A stretch of 64,000 nucleotides of DNA from a virus (Duplodnaviria > Caudoviricetes): the IMG/VR virus record IMGVR_UViG_3300049563_000052, positions 33,020 to 97,019 of that record; one strand, given 5' to 3'. This document shows, one piece after another, positions 19,566 through 55,121 of the stretch. The translations under genes and the position numbers were made by a program. The notes beneath the pieces were generated by a model. It was not told where the DNA came from and did not search any database. It saw only the letters and a program-made list of their open reading frames with translations. Position 1 is the first letter of the stretch, and each line of letters starts with the position of its first letter.

Positions 19566-20774
19566 ATGGCATTAACTCAGTCACAGTTTCGTGGGCGCAA
19601 CGACGACGGATCACAAACGGCCGCGACGTGGAAGGCCGCCGTAAATACGAACTGGTCACAGCCGCTGGATGTAAACTTCCGACTGCGGTTCACCATTGCA
19701 TCTACAGCTATTCAGGCAACAGATTGGCAAGCGTTTTACAGTAAAAACGGTGGGGCCTGGACCGCGATCACGGGATCATCGTTGGTGGTCCGCACCGCGT
19801 TGTCTTCCCAGGTGGCGGAGGGTGAGGCGACAACCCAACAACTCAGTGCGGGGACATTCGTCGCGGGAACGGTTGACGAGACCGATGGGTTCTACGCCTC
19901 CACGTCGCTGACGGCTACCTCGTCGACCGAGCTAGAGGGGGTCTACGTCCTTCGGTCGGCCGACTTGATCGCCGGTGACACTGTCGGGATTCGAATTCAG
20001 CAAGGCAACTTCACCGCGCTTGGCACGTATACGGCTACGCCATCATTCACGGTTAGCGGTACGGGGCTCACGATCCGTGGCGAGGCCAGTAACGCAGTCA
20101 ATACGGCGGGCGCGAATACCCCATCGGTATCGACCCCGGCGGGTACGCAGGTCGGCGACATTATCCTGTGTATTTGCGCTAACGATTGGTTTACCGCGGC
20201 GACATTGCTGACCCCCACGGGTACCGCGGCCTCATCGTGGACGCTGCAACATACCTACGATGGTGGTTCCAACGCTAATCACGTCAAGGTGTGGACCGCT
20301 CCGGCCATCGCCGCCGGTGCACAGACGGTGAACTACGCCTACGGCACGCCGGGCGACGGTAGCGAGGAACGCTATATCCAAATCATCGTGTTTGATGCTA
20401 ATGTGGCATTTGACGCCGCCGTATCCAGCACGATATCCGCGTCGACGGCATTTACCAGTCCGACCGTCAATGCAGCCGGTATCGACGATGTACTCGTGGT
20501 GAATGTCGGTACCAATGGGGCCGCCGGGGTGAGCAACTTCACCATGGATGCAGCGTTGACGATTCTCACCGAGCGCGATGTCGGAACGTTCAGCACTCTT
20601 CGAAGTGGCTATCAGCAGTTGTCGGCGAGTGGGGCGACGGGTACTCGAACGAATACGTGCAGCGTGGCGCGGACCGGGCATGCGCTGTCGGTGACGATGA
20701 AATCCGCGGCGCTGGTGTACGAGCCGCAACAGCCGCAGCCGTACACCGCGCGCCGTCGGGCGTCGCTCTGGTGA
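19566..20774 (+). CDS. Virion appendage/fibre protein, lower-GC gene
   Basis: Thr/Ala/Gly-rich beta domains; C-terminal part resembles modules in 21322 and 36366 (LSASGATGTRT). Confidence 0.75.
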   Translation: MALTQSQFRGRNDDGSQTAATWKAAVNTNWSQPLDVNFRLRFTIASTAIQATDWQAFYSKNGGAWTAITGSSLVVRTALSSQVAEGEATTQQLSAGTFVAGTVDETDGFYASTSLTATSSTELEGVYVLRSADLIAGDTVGIRIQQGNFTALGTYTATPSFTVSGTGLTIRGEASNAVNTAGANTPSVSTPAGTQVGDIILCICANDWFTAATLLTPTGTAASSWTLQHTYDGGSNANHVKVWTAPAIAAGAQTVNYAYGTPGDGSEERYIQIIVFDANVAFDAAVSSTISASTAFTSPTVNAAGIDDVLVVNVGTNGAAGVSNFTMDAALTILTERDVGTFSTLRSGYQQLSASGATGTRTNTCSVARTGHALSVTMKSAALVYEPQQPQPYTARRRASLW

Positions 20775-49693: not shown

Positions 49694-50100
49694 GATCCCG
49701 CCTCCGCATCGGCGTCGGCGGCCTGCCGGATCTCGTCGGCGAGCGCGACCCGGCGCTGCACCCGGGCGGTGGCCGGCCGCAGCCGGTCGATCAGCTCGTC
49801 GTTGGCGTGGCTGATCTGGTAGCCGGAGCGGTGCAGGGTCAGCAGGCACTCGTCGAGCAGCAGATCGACGCGCACGAACGCGGAGGCCAGGTCTGGGTCA
49901 TCCATGGGGGACATCGTGCAGGGCGGCGGCGGGCCGTCTTCGGGTTCGCGAGTGAGGTCACCGGCCGGATCGGTGGCCAGCGCCTCCAGCCCGGCCGGTG
50001 TGACTATCCAACCCGCCCGGGTGGGCCAGCCCGCTACGGCCAGTTGCAGCACGGGCAGCGGGGCAGGGGAACGGTCGTTCGTCGTGGTGGTGTCGTCCAT
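49690..50100 (-). CDS. Hypothetical protein (probably leaderless)
   Basis: TACGGT -10 (50108-50113) lies 7 nt before ATG 50100. Confidence 0.65.
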   Translation of the reverse strand: MDDTTTTNDRSPAPLPVLQLAVAGWPTRAGWIVTPAGLEALATDPAGDLTREPEDGPPPPCTMSPMDDPDLASAFVRVDLLLDECLLTLHRSGYQISHANDELIDRLRPATARVQRRVALADEIRQAADADAEAGS

Positions 50101-50107
50101 GGATGTC

Positions 50108-50149
50108 ACCGTATCGCCGCGCGCCGGGCGCGCATGGCGGGGGTACGGT
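50108..50149. promoter_or_regulatory. Divergent promoters (both TACGGT -10) flanking an operator palindrome
   Basis: GCGCGCC-G-GGCGCGCA at 50119-50134; -10 boxes at 50108-50113 (minus) and 50144-50149 (plus). Confidence 0.65.
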
Positions 50150-50270
50150 ACTCGTGCACGAATGCGAACGCAGAGGGTGGGACGGGCCCCGGGGGCCCGT
50201 CCCGACCCGGCCCCACCACGAAGTGAAGACCACCCACAACGGCGAAACACCTTCGGAAAGGAGTCCCTGA

Positions 50271-50423
50271 ATGGGCGACGCCACGGTACCGCACGCACGC
50301 ACGCCTGCACGTGCGTGTCCCTCTGTCGGAGCTGTGCGCGTGGTGTGTCTCCCCCGGTTTGTCGGTGTGTCGCGGGATCGTTCGCAGCGCGGATCGCAAC
50401 CCACCACGAGGGAGGACCCATGA
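50271..50423 (+). CDS. 50-aa leader ORF coupled to the exonuclease gene (not in the ORF track)
   Basis: GAAAGGAG RBS; stop overlaps the ATGA start at 50420; atypical codon usage. Confidence 0.55.
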   Translation: MGDATVPHARTPARACPSVGAVRVVCLPRFVGVSRDRSQRGSQPTTREDP

Positions 50424-51604
50424 TCACAACGATGGACATCGGCCCGGACTACTGGGCCGCGCCGACCGGCTGGGACTACCCGGACGGCTGGCCACGCGAG
50501 CACCCCGGCGTGTCCCCCGACGACGCCCTGGAGGTGTTGCCTCCCGGGCTCGACGACGCCGACCCCGAGCTGTGGCGGGCCTGGCGGCTGACCGGCATCG
50601 GCTCGTCGGACATCTCCGCGCTGCTCGGGCTGCACCGCCGCAAGGCCGCCATGGAAACCTGGGAGATCAAGACCGGCCGGGTGTCGGACGACCTGACCGC
50701 CTGGGACGACGACGACGCGTACACGACGTGGCAGGGCGCCGAATACGGGGTTGCGTTCGAGCCGGTGGTGCGGGACCTGTACGCGGCCAAGCACGGGCTG
50801 ACCATCGTCAAGCCGGGCACGTTCCGGTCGGTGCGGTGGCCGTGGCTGGTGGTGAACCCGGACGGGCTGATCCAGCGCCCGGCCGGGCGCTGGCCCGCCT
50901 CCGACGGCGAGGGCCCGATCGAGGGCTACGAAGGCAAGACCTGCTCGATGTGGCTGGCCGAGCAGTGGGCGGGCGGGCAGATGCCCGACCATGCCGAGCT
51001 CCAATGCCAAACCATGATGGCGGTGCTCGGCCTGGACGGCATGCACGTGCGCTGCTGCATCGGCGGGCAGTGGTCCGCCGACCGGTACGTGGCCCGCGAT
51101 GACGGGCTGATCGAAGACATCGTCGAGCTGACCCGCGAGTTCTGGTATGACCACGTGCTCACCGACACGCCGCCGCCGCCGGACGGCGGGCTGGCCTGTG
51201 AGGAATTCCTGACCCGGCGGCACCTGCACGCCGCGCACGGCCCGACCGCGGTGGCCGACCCGGACGCCGCCGCTTTCATCCTGTCCGCCTGGGCGCAGGA
51301 GCGTGCGGCCAAGACCTACGTCGACGGCGGCCGGGAGGGCAAGAACGTCGCCCGCGACCAGCTCGGCGACTTCACCGAACTGATCGACGACCAGGGCCGC
51401 ACCATCGCGACCTGGCGGCAGAACGGCCCGCTGCGGACCGCCGAGCTGCTCGCCGAGCACCCGGACGAGACCGCCCCGTTCCTGCGCAAGGTCGAGGTGC
51501 TCGACGCCGACGCGTTCGCCGAGGCGCACCCCGACCTGTACACCGCGTACCGCGCCCGGCGGCTACTGATCAAGACCCTGAAGACCACGAAGGAGAACCA
51601 CTGA
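50420..51604 (+). CDS. YqaJ/RecE-like (lambda exonuclease family) recombination exonuclease
   Basis: RLTGIGSSDISALLG, NPDG, YEGKT, LQCQTMM. Confidence 0.92.
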   Translation: MITTMDIGPDYWAAPTGWDYPDGWPREHPGVSPDDALEVLPPGLDDADPELWRAWRLTGIGSSDISALLGLHRRKAAMETWEIKTGRVSDDLTAWDDDDAYTTWQGAEYGVAFEPVVRDLYAAKHGLTIVKPGTFRSVRWPWLVVNPDGLIQRPAGRWPASDGEGPIEGYEGKTCSMWLAEQWAGGQMPDHAELQCQTMMAVLGLDGMHVRCCIGGQWSADRYVARDDGLIEDIVELTREFWYDHVLTDTPPPPDGGLACEEFLTRRHLHAAHGPTAVADPDAAAFILSAWAQERAAKTYVDGGREGKNVARDQLGDFTELIDDQGRTIATWRQNGPLRTAELLAEHPDETAPFLRKVEVLDADAFAEAHPDLYTAYRARRLLIKTLKTTKENH

Positions 51605-53046
51605 TGGCTAGGGACCTGGCCGATCGGGTGCACAGCGCCCGTCGCGGCCGCGGAGACGATCCGGCGGCGGGCAACGGACGCGAGGTCGCCCGCCAGCCCG
51701 ACGACAAGGCGTTGATCGAGGCCGTGCGGAAGATGCAGACCGAGTTCGCCAAGGCGATGGGCCCGATCCGCGGGGAGGCCGCCGAGCAGCTGGTCCGCGA
51801 CGCCACCACCGAGATCCGCCGCAACCCCAAGCTGGCGCTGTGCAACCGGGCGTCGGTGCTCGGCGGGCTCATGACGATGGCGCAGCTCGGGCTGCGGATC
51901 GGGGTGCTCGGGCACGGCTGGCTGATCCCGATGTGGAACGACAAGCGGCGCGAGCAGATGGCCACGCTGATCATCGGGTACAAGGGCTACACCAAGCTGG
52001 CCTACAACGCCGCCGCGCTGCGCGACATCCGCTCCCGCACGATCTACGCCGCCGATGAGTACGCCATCGAATACGGCACCGAAGAGCGGCTGCTGCACCG
52101 CCCGGCGATGACCGCGGACCGGGGCGAGCCGATCGGCTACTACTGCGTGGTCAACCTGAACGCGCGGCAGCCCGGCCAGCCCGGCGGGCAGATCTTCCAC
52201 TTCCGCAGCCAGCCGGAGATGGAGCTGCACCGGGACCGCTACGCCATGTCCCGCGAGTTCGACTGGTCGTCCGGCAAGCCCAAGCCGAAGTACCACGACG
52301 ACGGGCGGCCGATCATCACCGGGCCGTGGCGGGACAACTTCGAGGAGATGGCCTGGAAGACCGAGTGGCTGACGATCGCGCGGTTCGTGCCGATGTCGGC
52401 GGATCTGGAGCTGGCCACGTTCGCCGACGGCACCGCCCGGCTCGACGTGTCCCCGAACAACCGGGACGCCGCGGCTACCGGTGACCGGCTGGGGGACACG
52501 GTGCTGGACGGGGACATCGTCGAGTCCGAGGCCGCCGCCGCGGAGCCGGAGCCGGAGCGGGAGACGATCGACGTGCGCAAGTCGGAGCCGCCCGCCGACG
52601 AGCGCCCGCCCGCCGCCGACCCGGAGCCCGACGAGCAGCCGCCGATGCCGCCCGCCGACGAGCCCGCCGCGGGCAACCGGCAGGCGATGATCCGGGCCCT
52701 GTTCGCGACGATGAAGCCGTGCGGGATCTCCGATGTCGAGGCCGTGATCGTGCTGGTGTGCGCGCTGAACGGGTGGGACTTCGACGACGCGGACCACGCG
52801 CTCCCGGGGTCGCTCGACGACATCTCCGCCGAGCAGCTGACGCACGCCATGCGGCTGCTCAACCAGTGGCGCGCCGACGGCGACGAGGCGCAGATGTGCA
52901 GCCTGCTGCTGGAGCACCGGCCGGACCCGGACCACCCGGTGTGGGACCGGGTCACCGCGGCCCGCCGCGAGCACGAGAAGACCAAGGCCCCGAGCGCACG
53001 CCGGAGCCGCAAGAGCACCACCGAGAAGGAGGGCACCGATGGCTGA
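51604..53046 (+). CDS. recT: RecT-like ssDNA annealing protein
   Basis: NPKLALC, AQLGL, LIIGYKGY, GPWRDNFEEMAWKT. Confidence 0.93.
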   Translation: MARDLADRVHSARRGRGDDPAAGNGREVARQPDDKALIEAVRKMQTEFAKAMGPIRGEAAEQLVRDATTEIRRNPKLALCNRASVLGGLMTMAQLGLRIGVLGHGWLIPMWNDKRREQMATLIIGYKGYTKLAYNAAALRDIRSRTIYAADEYAIEYGTEERLLHRPAMTADRGEPIGYYCVVNLNARQPGQPGGQIFHFRSQPEMELHRDRYAMSREFDWSSGKPKPKYHDDGRPIITGPWRDNFEEMAWKTEWLTIARFVPMSADLELATFADGTARLDVSPNNRDAAATGDRLGDTVLDGDIVESEAAAAEPEPERETIDVRKSEPPADERPPAADPEPDEQPPMPPADEPAAGNRQAMIRALFATMKPCGISDVEAVIVLVCALNGWDFDDADHALPGSLDDISAEQLTHAMRLLNQWRADGDEAQMCSLLLEHRPDPDHPVWDRVTAARREHEKTKAPSARRSRKSTTEKEGTDG

Positions 53047-53485
53047 CATCGAGGAGATCCGCGAGCGGGACTGGGAGCGGCTGACCCCGGAGGGCAAGGC
53101 GCTGGCTGTGATGCTGGTCGGGCTGCGCAGCGGCAAGACGCTGCGGGAGGCCGCGGAGAAGCTGGGCGTCGTCGTCGATCACGTGGTCGACATGAGCTAC
53201 ACCGACGACAACGGCAACGTGAAGGGCCCGAAGGGCACCGTGACGCTGACCCTCGAAGTCTGCCCGGACCCCGACGGCGGGTCCGGGACGGTGCTGGTGA
53301 ACGAGAAGGTGGCGCACCGCTACCCGGAGGACCGCGGCCACGTGCTGTACACGGGCAAGAACGGCACCCTGCACACCCGGCAGGAGACGGCCGGGATGCT
53401 GTTCGCGGTCGAGGACGGCGAGATCCGCACCCTCGGCGATGGCGACGGCGACGATCCGCAACGGCGGGCCGCGCAGGCAGATTGA
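53039..53485 (+). CDS. Conserved phage hypothetical protein
   Basis: KGTVTLTLEV...LYTGKNGTLHTRQ motif. Confidence 0.75.
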   Translation: MADIEEIRERDWERLTPEGKALAVMLVGLRSGKTLREAAEKLGVVVDHVVDMSYTDDNGNVKGPKGTVTLTLEVCPDPDGGSGTVLVNEKVAHRYPEDRGHVLYTGKNGTLHTRQETAGMLFAVEDGEIRTLGDGDGDDPQRRAAQAD

Positions 53486-53497
53486 GGAGGCCGTCCC

Positions 53498-53602
53498 CCG
53501 ATGGGCTGTACCGCTCACGGCATCGGCGCGCCCGACCGCGTAGTGGAGGTTCCCAACACCACACGTTCGGGTCCAGGATGCCTACTCGTAACGGGTGGGC
53601 AT
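53498..53602 (+). ncRNA. Putative C4/CI-like structured RNA (three hairpins)
   Basis: Stems at about 53498-53526, 53531-53571 and 53578-53602; loop GGTTCCCAAC is complementary to 53729-53738. Confidence 0.4.
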
Positions 53603-53702
53603 ACCTCACACACGCACCACAAGCATCATCAGCCTCACGTGTACCAGCCGGGGAGTAGCCGAGGGGGACTCCACGGGCGTACTGGCTGAGTTATTGCTTG
53701 GT

Positions 53703-53773
53703 AAACCATAAACGACGGCCACCCCTGGGTTGGGAGCCGGGGTGGCCGTCGGAGAGGACGATCTCCATGTCCT
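53703..53773 (-). ncRNA. Putative ~70-nt cis-antisense RNA to the rep leader
   Basis: Extended -10 TGCTAACCT at 53780-53788 (minus); 12-bp hairpin 53714-53750 followed by GTTTATGGTTT on the minus strand. Confidence 0.55.
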
Positions 53774-53832
53774 GGCGACAGGTTAGCAGCAATGCACGTG
53801 CATCCGTCCACGACGCCACGCGGGTCCGGTGA
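53767..53832 (+). CDS. 21-aa leader peptide coupled to rep (not in the ORF track)
   Basis: GGAGAGG RBS at 53751-53757; MSWRQVSSNARASVHDATRVR*; TGATG overlap with the rep start. Confidence 0.6.
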   Translation: MSWRQVSSNARASVHDATRVR

Positions 53833-55121
53833 TGGACGGTGCGCAGGCGCAGATTACGGCGCGCATCTGGGAAGACCCGGAATGGCGGGCGCTGTCAGTA
53901 ACAGCGCAATGGCTATACCAGTCCGGGCTGTCACAACACGAAATCACGAAATGTGGCCTGCTGCCGCTGCGGGAATCGCGGTGGGCGGGGCTCGCCGCGT
54001 ATCTTGATATTGACGAGATACAGTCCGCGCGGAAACTCCTGGTCGATACCCGGTTCTGGGTGGTGGATGAGGAATCCGAGGAGGTGCTGTACCGCTCGTT
54101 CATGCGGACGCGCGAGGTGTGGCGCAACAACAACATGCTCAAGGCGGCGTGTCTGGCGTGCCACAGCGCCCGCGGTCCGGGGGTCCGGGCGGCGCTGCTG
54201 CGGGAGCTGCACCGCCTCCCGCAAGATCACATACAGCGGTTGCGTCCGGCCCGCAACGGGCAGCGGCGGCCGTGGCTGGTGTACGTCGAGACGATGGCCA
54301 TGCTCCGCGGTGAAGGGCCGAACGGACCCTTCATCGACAACCCGGACATCGGCCAGCTGACCCTCGACGCTGAGGCGTTCGGCGGGCAGCCGGACGGCCC
54401 GCAGTCCGTTACACCTCCGCCGAACGGCCGTACCGTCGGCGCACCCCCTGGCGATGCACCCGGTGTACGCCGGACGGCGGCTGCGGCTACTCCGTTCTTA
54501 CCGCAAGGCTTGGGGCAAGGCTTGCCCCAAGCCTTGGGTGAACATAAGAACTACGTAGTTGGTGGTACAGAAGGGCAGTTAGGTAGCTGTACCAGCGGGG
54601 TTATCTCTCAAGACGCGCGAGAAGAAACGATCATCGACGTGCCCCCGCTGTTCCCTCCGGGCTGCGGCAGCGTCGACCCCGAAGACGCGCAAGTGATCGC
54701 CATGGCCCGCAGCGAGGCGCGCAAGGCCAACCGGCTGCTCAACCAGCCGTGGCTGCACGCCGGTGCCACGGCGCTCGTCGACCGGCTGACCGCCGACTGG
54801 CCGGTGCCGCCCACCGGCAAGGTCCGCGACCAGTGGCGGGTCGAGGTGAGCACGTTGCTCAAAGACGCCATCCCCGAGGACGCCATCGCGGCCGGACTGG
54901 CGGAATGCGTCGACAAGGGCTACGGGCCGCGGGCATTGGCCACATTCGTTTTCAATCTGGCCAACCGGGGCACGCCGGATTCCCGGGCTGGGCGCGCCGT
55001 AAAAGCGACGCTGTCGCATGTCGGCCCGGATGACGGGCCGGGGCTCGCTGCGTATCTGCCGGGTGCATCATTGCGCGGCACGGCAACTCCACCACGACAG
55101 CTGGGACCCGGAAATGACTGA
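53832..55121 (+). CDS. Replication initiator (RepA-like HTH)
   Basis: IWEDPEWRALS..AQWLY...LSQ...CGLLP...RWA...VDEESEEVLYRSFMR motif of actinophage Rep proteins. Confidence 0.8.
   Translation: MDGAQAQITARIWEDPEWRALSVTAQWLYQSGLSQHEITKCGLLPLRESRWAGLAAYLDIDEIQSARKLLVDTRFWVVDEESEEVLYRSFMRTREVWRNNNMLKAACLACHSARGPGVRAALLRELHRLPQDHIQRLRPARNGQRRPWLVYVETMAMLRGEGPNGPFIDNPDIGQLTLDAEAFGGQPDGPQSVTPPPNGRTVGAPPGDAPGVRRTAAAATPFLPQGLGQGLPQALGEHKNYVVGGTEGQLGSCTSGVISQDAREETIIDVPPLFPPGCGSVDPEDAQVIAMARSEARKANRLLNQPWLHAGATALVDRLTADWPVPPTGKVRDQWRVEVSTLLKDAIPEDAIAAGLAECVDKGYGPRALATFVFNLANRGTPDSRAGRAVKATLSHVGPDDGPGLAAYLPGASLRGTATPPRQLGPGND
54504..54610. other. Probable replication origin inside rep
   Basis: 33-bp perfect palindrome at 54504-54536 built from 12-bp-spaced CAAG(G/C)CTTG units, followed by an AT-rich tract. 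Confidence 0.55.

Follow-up and report, generated by a model that had tools for sequence, protein, structure and literature searches.

Known antisense and leader control of replication initiators

The limiting of a replication initiator by an antisense RNA and a leader is a textbook trait of enterobacterial plasmids. Blomberg, Nordstrom and Wagner are said to have described such a design in 1992 for the IncFII plasmids R1 and R100, composed of the CopA antisense RNA, the tap leader peptide and repA. The I-complex plasmids (IncI1 ColIb-P9/R64 and IncB pMU720) feature RNAI or Inc RNA, the leader peptide repY or repB, and repZ or repA (PMC10286972). The DNA considered here, which comes from a soil actinophage and is referred to as the window, is a stretch of 64,000 nucleotides (nt) with a GC content of 71% that represents bases 33020-97019 of a 97-kb IMG/VR virus record; upstream of its gene for a replication-initiation protein, rep, lie a hairpin, a short leader open reading frame (ORF) with its own Shine-Dalgarno sequence (SD) and, on the minus strand within that leader, a predicted promoter for an antisense RNA. 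This antisense-leader reading is well supported by comparative sequence evidence, the RNA being a predicted one. Its logic is known from the IncFII and I-complex plasmids (PMC10286972, R1), and a small convergent RNA lies next to gene O in phage lambda; the literature searched holds no description of antisense and leader control of an actinophage rep gene.

Replication of actinophages is poorly understood, as a passage of PMC7157519 states for the mycobacteriophages. If true, the reading would mean that initiator control by antisense RNA and leader peptide arose independently in high-GC actinophages, and that such control acts on a lambda-O-like initiator with the origin inside its gene; it would also open a concrete way to study how the timing or the extent of DNA replication is set in such phages, and actinobacterial genetics would gain a compact, portable RNA control cassette of about 120 bp. 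The features of the locus are as follows.

53713-53751, minus strand: 13-bp hairpin with a 13-nt loop (arms 53713-53725 and 53739-53751), the proposed antisense terminator
53700-53712, minus strand: U-rich tail UUUAUGGUUUACC (also written TTTATGGTTTACC) after the hairpin
53703-53773, minus strand: predicted cis-antisense RNA of about 71 nt, with its start placed at A53773 from the -10 element (7 nt downstream)
53751-53757, plus strand: SD of the leader, GGAGAGG, 9 nt before the ATG at 53767
53767-53832, plus strand: leader ORF of 21 codons, uncalled as a gene, with a stop that overlaps the rep start
53780-53788, minus strand (reads 53788-53780): predicted extended -10 element TGCTAACCT of the antisense RNA, in leader codons 5-8
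53792-53803, no strand: 12-bp palindrome ATGCACGTGCAT that lies in the spacer and -35 zone of the predicted antisense promoter and may be a regulator site
53832-55121, plus strand: rep, a replication-initiation protein of 429 amino acids (aa) with PHROG matches and a conserved ATG start

The leader and its proposed coupling to rep

R1 and R100 share with this locus a short leader ORF whose stop adjoins or overlaps the rep start, and in R1 and R100 its translation is needed for Rep. The leader of the window encodes the hydrophilic peptide MSWRQVSSNARASVHDATRVR; its TGA (53830-53832) shares its A with the rep ATG (53832-53834) to give TGATG. An open frame of 21 codons is by itself no evidence at 71% GC, where an estimated 68% or so of random frames that long stay open. 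The arrangement is kept in five further metagenome lineages, so that the lack of conservation in relatives which the initial annotation had named as refuting is not seen. The leader is present with 21 codons in the window and in the lineages L005, L011 and L010, and with 18 codons in L002 and L013. Its SD is kept in all lineages as GGAGAGG, GGGAAGG or AGAAAGG, at 6-9 nt from the start codon, and the leader-rep junction CGGTGATGG is invariant in the close lineages; the leader peptide is poorly conserved, and the sole length difference among close lineages is the in-frame 9 nt of L002. The initial annotation had drawn the GGAGAGG site, the 21 codons and the overlapping stop to within one base at every point, and its statement that rep has no obvious ribosome-binding site also stands; there is no GGAGG-like sequence within 15 nt upstream of rep in the window, and no SD for rep in any close lineage. 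The combination typical of IncFII, consisting of a leader with its own SD, a TGATG overlap and a rep gene lacking an SD, thus appears in five close lineages. Other reading frames at the locus were rejected: a second ORF from a GTG at 53742 to a conserved TAG is broken by a 1-nt insertion in L010 and lacks a start in L025, and the frame of a minus-strand ORF beginning in the CATG palindrome is not conserved.

The predicted antisense promoter within the leader

Actinobacterial extended -10 elements follow a consensus of the TANNNT type. The initial annotation had called the -10 inside the leader perfect, which is correct base for base in five lineages against the actinobacterial TGnTAnnnT; against TATAAT the hexamer TAACCT agrees at only three of six positions. 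The promoter comparison, which gives the strongest evidence of the analysis, covers the window, L002, L005, L010 and L025, aligned on the leader start codon, with Rep identity down to about 41%. Across the 18 nt of codons 4-9, read on the minus strand, the invariant bases are TG.TA...T and one flanking G; the N positions within TGnTAnnnT and all neighboring positions vary, that G excepted, so that the element reads TGCTAACCT, TGCTACTGT, TGCTACTCT, TGCTAGCCT and TGTTAGTCT in the five lineages. Its register relative to the leader start codon is unchanged even in L025, a lineage identified through protein homology rather than a DNA pattern. Leader codon 6 is GTT (Val), AGT (Ser), GCT (Ala) or ACT (Thr), and its third-position T, the complement of A(-11) of the predicted -10, is always kept; T makes up 4.3% of third positions in the phage, and GTT, AGT and GCT account for 1-4% of their own codon families. 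As read from this alignment, the pattern at codon 6 is the opposite of a peptide constraint, and the leader would provide a clear example of a promoter read from the substitution pattern within a coding frame.

Motifs of this kind are scarce in the window. The motif TGNTANNNT occurs three times on both strands (128 kb of strand), against 11.8 +/- 3.8 expected from dinucleotide shuffles, and one of the three is the site in the leader; TANNNT is strongly depleted: mononucleotide shuffles give about 184 sites per strand, whereas the plus strand has 25 and the minus strand 33. Of these 58 TANNNT sites, 13 are packed in an AT-rich patch at 19.67-20.44 kb (cluster 19670-20440) inside an ORF of the structural region, and this patch also contains one of the three TGNTANNNT sites (20396-20404, plus strand). 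There is no plus-strand TANNNT in the gap before rep in three lineages (a gap of 345 bp in the window), and the closest to rep, at 50144, belongs to a divergent control region. This makes an upstream source for the rightward rep message probable.

The palindrome next to the -10 has a core, TGCACGTGCA, that is kept in the window, L005 and L010 and deleted in L002. The palindrome GCACGTGC occurs four times in the window (48711, 50307, 51043 and 53794), which is not above chance, and may be a regulator site; all four copies lie within 5.1 kb of the early region (48.7-53.8 kb), two of them inside small leader-type ORFs.

The hairpin and the predicted antisense RNA

In R1 and R100, as is predicted here, a promoter in the leader region gives rise to a counter-transcript of about 70-90 nt whose end is a stem-loop, and the mRNA bears the complementary stem-loop. 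The hairpin of the window was initially described as 12 bp at 53714-53750; it is present, with arms that are in fact 13 bp long. For the 96-nt minus-strand segment 53695-53790, which includes the hairpin, the folding energy is -45.9 kcal/mol (z = -4.25 against shuffles). On the minus strand, the window, L002 and L005 all form 14 pairs of the consensus stem; at the fifteenth consensus pair (columns 32/53) the window has an alignment gap, its stem being shorter by one C. With L025 included, 98.1% of cells pair on the minus strand, compared to 27-67% in slid controls. Three pairs of the stem are changed on both sides (A-U to G-C twice, C-G to G-C once), and the wobbles of the hairpin, without exception, are minus-strand G-U pairs that turn into A-C mismatches on the other strand; no wobble is specific to the plus strand. 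Two of the wobble positions, independent of each other, are in the main stem, and one is in its inner extension. Covariation upstream of homologous rep genes, which the initial annotation had named as a check, is thus found, both as three compensatory changes and as G-U pairs confined to one strand. The wobble bias is modest but consistent; it favors an RNA read from the minus strand and argues against a purely DNA-level palindrome.

The predicted RNA would consist of the complement of the leader AUG and SD, followed by the hairpin and the U-rich tail. The span from hairpin to -10 (53709-53788) is 78-86% identical to the relatives; the figure for L002 and L005 is 78-81%, with flanking non-coding DNA at 18-30%. 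Nucleotide identity falls to 18-49% just upstream of the hairpin and to 24-63% in the remainder of the leader; in extent the conserved block coincides with the predicted RNA and its promoter. The tail itself has five U in its first 8 nt in the window and L002 and three in L005, and is weak in L025. The bases of the tail double as a minus-strand TANNNT, kept in the window, L002 and L005, the close lineages in which the hairpin is complete. Of the marks of a counter-transcript, the promoter bases and the hairpin are conserved with a minus-strand bias, and two lineages have a weak U-tail. Targets in trans for the hairpin loop were considered and rejected (YTGGGAG occurs 9 times against 13 expected).

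Comparison with plasmid and phage systems

The initial annotation had likened the locus to CopA/tap/repA of R1 and Inc/repY/repZ of ColIb-P9. The logic is indeed shared, but not Rfam CopA, an IncFII RepA, an activator pseudoknot or an occluded rep start. The Rep of R1 and R100 is unrelated; the antisense RNA predicted here, whose promoter lies inside the leader ORF, would cover the SD and AUG of the leader, whereas that of R1 covers a site just upstream. There is no sign here of a second layer of the CopB type, the rep start lies in no conserved structure, and the element is a tailed phage rather than a plasmid. An Rfam cmscan of 52500-55000 on both strands (E <= 1) returned no CopA (RF00042) and only a chance snoRNA match. 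The three-part logic of the I-complex, in which Rep depends on translation of the leader and the antisense RNA blocks that translation (PMC10286972), is also shared; however, Rep and RNA are unrelated, and the origin here is apparently inside rep and not downstream. For the I-complex activator pseudoknot, duplex energies between the loop and the sequence upstream of rep are no better than those of shuffles in three lineages.

Phage lambda has a small leftward convergent transcript (pO/oop) immediately upstream of an initiator gene that contains its own origin (PMC3985674). The oop RNA differs: its antisense target is the 3' end of cII, and translation of O is not under its control; the RNA predicted here would end near 53703, about 220 nt short of the upstream gene (end 53485). 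In hok/sok (with its mok leader) and P1 c4-icd-ant, as is proposed here, an RNA blocks an upstream ORF that is translationally coupled to a downstream gene; here, though, that gene encodes a 429-aa initiator in place of a toxin or antirepressor, the leader is hydrophilic, and complementarity of the c4 type is not found. A small hydrophobic toxin, the product expected of a type I toxin-antitoxin system, is likewise not encoded. Among actinophages, passages of PMC7157519 describe extrachromosomal mycobacteriophage prophage replicons, with RepA phages and RNA-based origins; these resemble the present case in the role of RNA in actinophage replication and in their RepA-like initiators, and differ in being parABS temperate phages, whereas no ParB or integrase is detected in this record. 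The passages of PMC7157519 that match the terms contain no leader-peptide or antisense control of repA.

Proposed mechanism and alternative explanations

It is considered somewhat probable that a cis-antisense RNA masks the ribosome site of the leader and so throttles the coupled translation of Rep. Sequence and comparison establish that the elements exist and are conserved and that the hairpin is strand-biased; the firing of the promoter, the end point of the RNA, the translation of the leader and the sign of the effect are predicted from them. A rightward mRNA, probably originating upstream, would bear a stem-loop, a strong SD and a 21-codon ORF overlapping the rep ATG; because rep has no SD of its own, ribosomes would reach it by completing the leader, through termination and reinitiation. 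The sigma-A-type extended -10 in leader codons 5-8 would fire leftward from about 53773 to produce an RNA of about 70 nt that is the exact complement of the leader start codon, spacer, SD and stem-loop and that ends at the hairpin, whose complement in the leader of the rep mRNA would be the target stem-loop. The two RNAs would pair, perhaps beginning at their complementary loops, and so block binding of the 30S subunit to the leader and lower Rep; the duplex may trigger cleavage. Since the antisense gene sits on the replicating genome, its dose would rise with copy number and provide negative feedback. Transcriptional interference between convergent promoters is a possible added effect, as for lambda pO (PMC3985674).

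A broader interpretation, which is offered tentatively and is more doubtful than the mechanism itself, is that an actinophage with no detectable integrase or partition genes places negative feedback by a gene-dosage-sensing antisense RNA and a leader on its own initiator. This would be copy-number logic during lytic replication, in a module evolutionarily independent of its enterobacterial plasmid versions. No integrase (tyrosine or serine) and no ParB are detected in the 97-kb record, and the phage is therefore probably virulent, or at least not a plasmid prophage. The record also encodes a Cro/CI-type HTH_3 (helix-turn-helix) domain (26 bits, above the Pfam cut-off; G000:C1:31964-32050) in a 184-aa open frame that lies about 1 kb before the window start, outside the window. 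The initial annotation had proposed that lysogeny or immunity might be gated by RNA rather than by a repressor; this finds no support, given that no integrase or ParB is detected and in view of the HTH protein and a divergent palindromic region, and at most RNA control in addition to protein control of the phage could be claimed. The HTH_3 protein is itself a candidate phage regulator.

Several observations weigh against antisense control of rep through the leader. Its weakest link is the terminator; termination at the hairpin is uncertain because the tail is U-poor in L005 and L025. The L025 leader has 56 codons and stops 6 nt before rep, which there has an SD-like GAGGGG, so strict coupling is not universal, and the evidence from frame-preserving indels amounts to the single event of L002. 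No conserved structure hides the rep start: a 7-bp stem is seen in the window only, and the unpaired probabilities of 0.21-0.57 reveal no conserved helix. No -35 element is conserved among the lineages compared, and a simple consensus scan gave no promoter or terminator at the locus, with rules that exclude hexamers of the TAACCT type and 13-nt loops. The host, and hence its promoter rules, is inferred, and of only five lineages with DNA, four are fairly close. Finally, a distant Rep homolog in a Pseudonocardia prophage (L029) shows no minus-strand -10, and a plus-strand TANNNT precedes its hairpin; an antisense RNA is therefore not a necessary companion of the leader design.

That prophage, which retains hairpin, SD, mini-ORF, TGATG and plus-strand TANNNT, fits an alternative in which only the leader-coupled translation is real. 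The hairpin would then be a plus-strand 5' untranslated or inter-operon element (an mRNA stabilizer, a processing site or an attenuator lacking U residues) and the minus-strand -10 no working promoter. Plus-strand terminator-like hairpins before rep in distant prophage relatives, and cultured actinophages in which rep simply adjoins the upstream gene, are also in keeping with this explanation. It is nonetheless considered unlikely: it leaves unexplained the invariance of exactly TG.TA...T and of a rare T-ending codon through four amino acids, and the plus strand has mismatches in place of the wobble pairs and no U-tract after the hairpin. The conserved leftward promoter could instead act as lambda pO does, interfering with rightward transcription into rep and its internal origin, with the RNA being incidental or having another target. 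A precedent is lambda, where the convergent pO reduces transcription from pR and adjusts replication in a way that depends little on oop RNA in trans (PMC3985674), and rep resembles lambda O in its internal origin-like iteron and AT-rich region. The minus-strand-specific hairpin right after the promoter and the exact overlap with SD and AUG suggest, however, selection on the RNA, and interference and antisense pairing are not mutually exclusive; a purely pO-like role is rated as quite unlikely.

Replication initiators often autoregulate at inverted repeats. The inverted repeat at 53713-53751, the palindrome at 53792-53803, or both could accordingly be read as an operator for Rep or another phage regulator, in agreement with the clustering of GCACGTGC palindromes in the early region and with the HTH_3 protein encoded by the record. 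This is improbable in view of compensatory changes that preserve pairing while altering the sequence and of a G-U/A-C asymmetry that is meaningless for duplex DNA; the hairpin arms are also dissimilar to the iterons inside rep. A processed plus-strand RNA from the upstream gap that pairs with the leader ribosome site, in the manner of P1 c4 or P4 CI, is scarcely to be expected: although a conserved block at 53577-53650 contains a hairpin with G-U pairs that favor the plus strand, in none of three lineages does the complementarity of the gap to the leader initiation region exceed that of shuffles.

Relatives and distribution of the arrangement

Only one small metagenomic clade (P0002, P0003 and P0004) shares Rep at 51-61% identity; its contigs keep the gene order YqaJ, RecT, YfdP-like, a gap of about 350 bp and rep, and all syntenic relatives retain a gap of this size between the YfdP-like gene and rep. 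A DNA pattern scan whose anchor was the leader start, with the hairpin, -10 and junction left free, added the two variants L011 and L013, with three other matches due to chance. The more distant L025, reached by protein homology alone, has a YfdP-like gene, a 420-bp gap and rep; its Rep is 57% identical to that of P0005, which is about 41% identical to the Rep of the window and also has a gap of 420 bp before its gene. No close DNA relatives are found among cultured phages or plasmids, and searches of viral contigs and genome contigs with the Rep protein and with the alignment gave no related loci.

The cultured actinophages Toast, P1312, StevieBAY, Mufasa8, APunk and Portcullis have no gap and no leader cassette; rep abuts or overlaps a longer upstream gene, which is a small HTH gene in StevieBAY, APunk and Portcullis, a gene for a single-stranded DNA-binding protein (14 nt away) in Mufasa8, and hypothetical in Toast and P1312. 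Tight spacing of rep to its upstream neighbor seems to be general, with the short leader being the version of this clade. From 801 actinobacterial genomes 12 prophage Rep homologs were recovered, most with their own SD and without the cassette, and plus-strand terminator-like hairpins precede rep in distant prophage relatives. The Pseudonocardia sp. prophage (L029 2363-2505) carries its distant Rep homolog after a 14+5-bp hairpin, an AGGAAGG SD, a 12-codon ORF and TGATG, with a further hairpin sequestering the SD; SSB is encoded upstream and DnaB downstream of rep. Within the gap of the window, the second conserved block at 53577-53650 (73-82% identity) has the hairpin GATGCCTACTCG-TAA-CGGGTGGGCAT, whose G-U pairs occur on the plus strand only; the block has no significant complementarity to the leader.

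The Rep protein and its possible origin

Rep matches phrog_8064 (E 1.3e-38) and phrog_3171 (E 1.1e-33), both labeled 'replication initiation protein'. Its relatives in cultured phages are all from actinophages (Gordonia 80, Arthrobacter 41, Mycobacterium 22, and others); homologs in Gordonia and Arthrobacter phages are annotated as replication initiators, several as RepA-like. On the basis of this hidden Markov model (HMM) similarity, 'actinophage replication initiator' is a reasonable label for the 429-aa protein. Rep has no Pfam family at E <= 0.01, IncFII_repA included, no NCBIfam match and no match in a search of PDB sequences, and its AlphaFold2 model is too poor for a comparison of folds (pLDDT 46.9).

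A perfect palindrome with 16-nt arms (54504-54519 and 54521-54536) lies inside rep; relatives have three to four iteron-like GGCTTACCCAA repeats at that position. Downstream of the palindrome, an AT-rich stretch at 54543-54600 is conserved at the nucleotide level and, at 48% GC, is the GC minimum of the region. This origin-like region maps to the low-confidence linker of the Rep model (residues 163-304) and resembles ori-lambda within gene O, which makes it a candidate internal origin.

Gene neighborhood

The gene order of the window places the terminase at about 10.1 kb, followed by structural genes with the tape measure at 21.3-26.1 kb and a lysis module at 45.2-48.1 kb (endolysin, holin and peptidase). 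A rightward early block then runs from YqaJ exonuclease through RecT and the YfdP-like gene to the 345-bp gap and rep.

49904-51604, plus strand: contains the YqaJ exonuclease domain
51604-53046, plus strand: RecT
53039-53485, plus strand: YfdP-like protein

The divergent control region at 50098-50423, which has palindromes and lies 3.6 kb upstream of rep, heads this early operon, and a minus-strand gene starts at about 50100. The region features the GGTAC-containing palindromes GGTACGGTAC (50143-50152) and ACGGTACCG (50284-50292), a hairpin at 50179-50203, the strong ribosome-binding site GAAAGGAG, and a 50-codon ORF (50271-50423) whose stop overlaps the exonuclease start (ATGA). Its minus-strand TACCGT lies inside a fully invariant block and resembles an operator half-site more than a demonstrable promoter. 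All elements of the divergent region are kept in L002 and L005.

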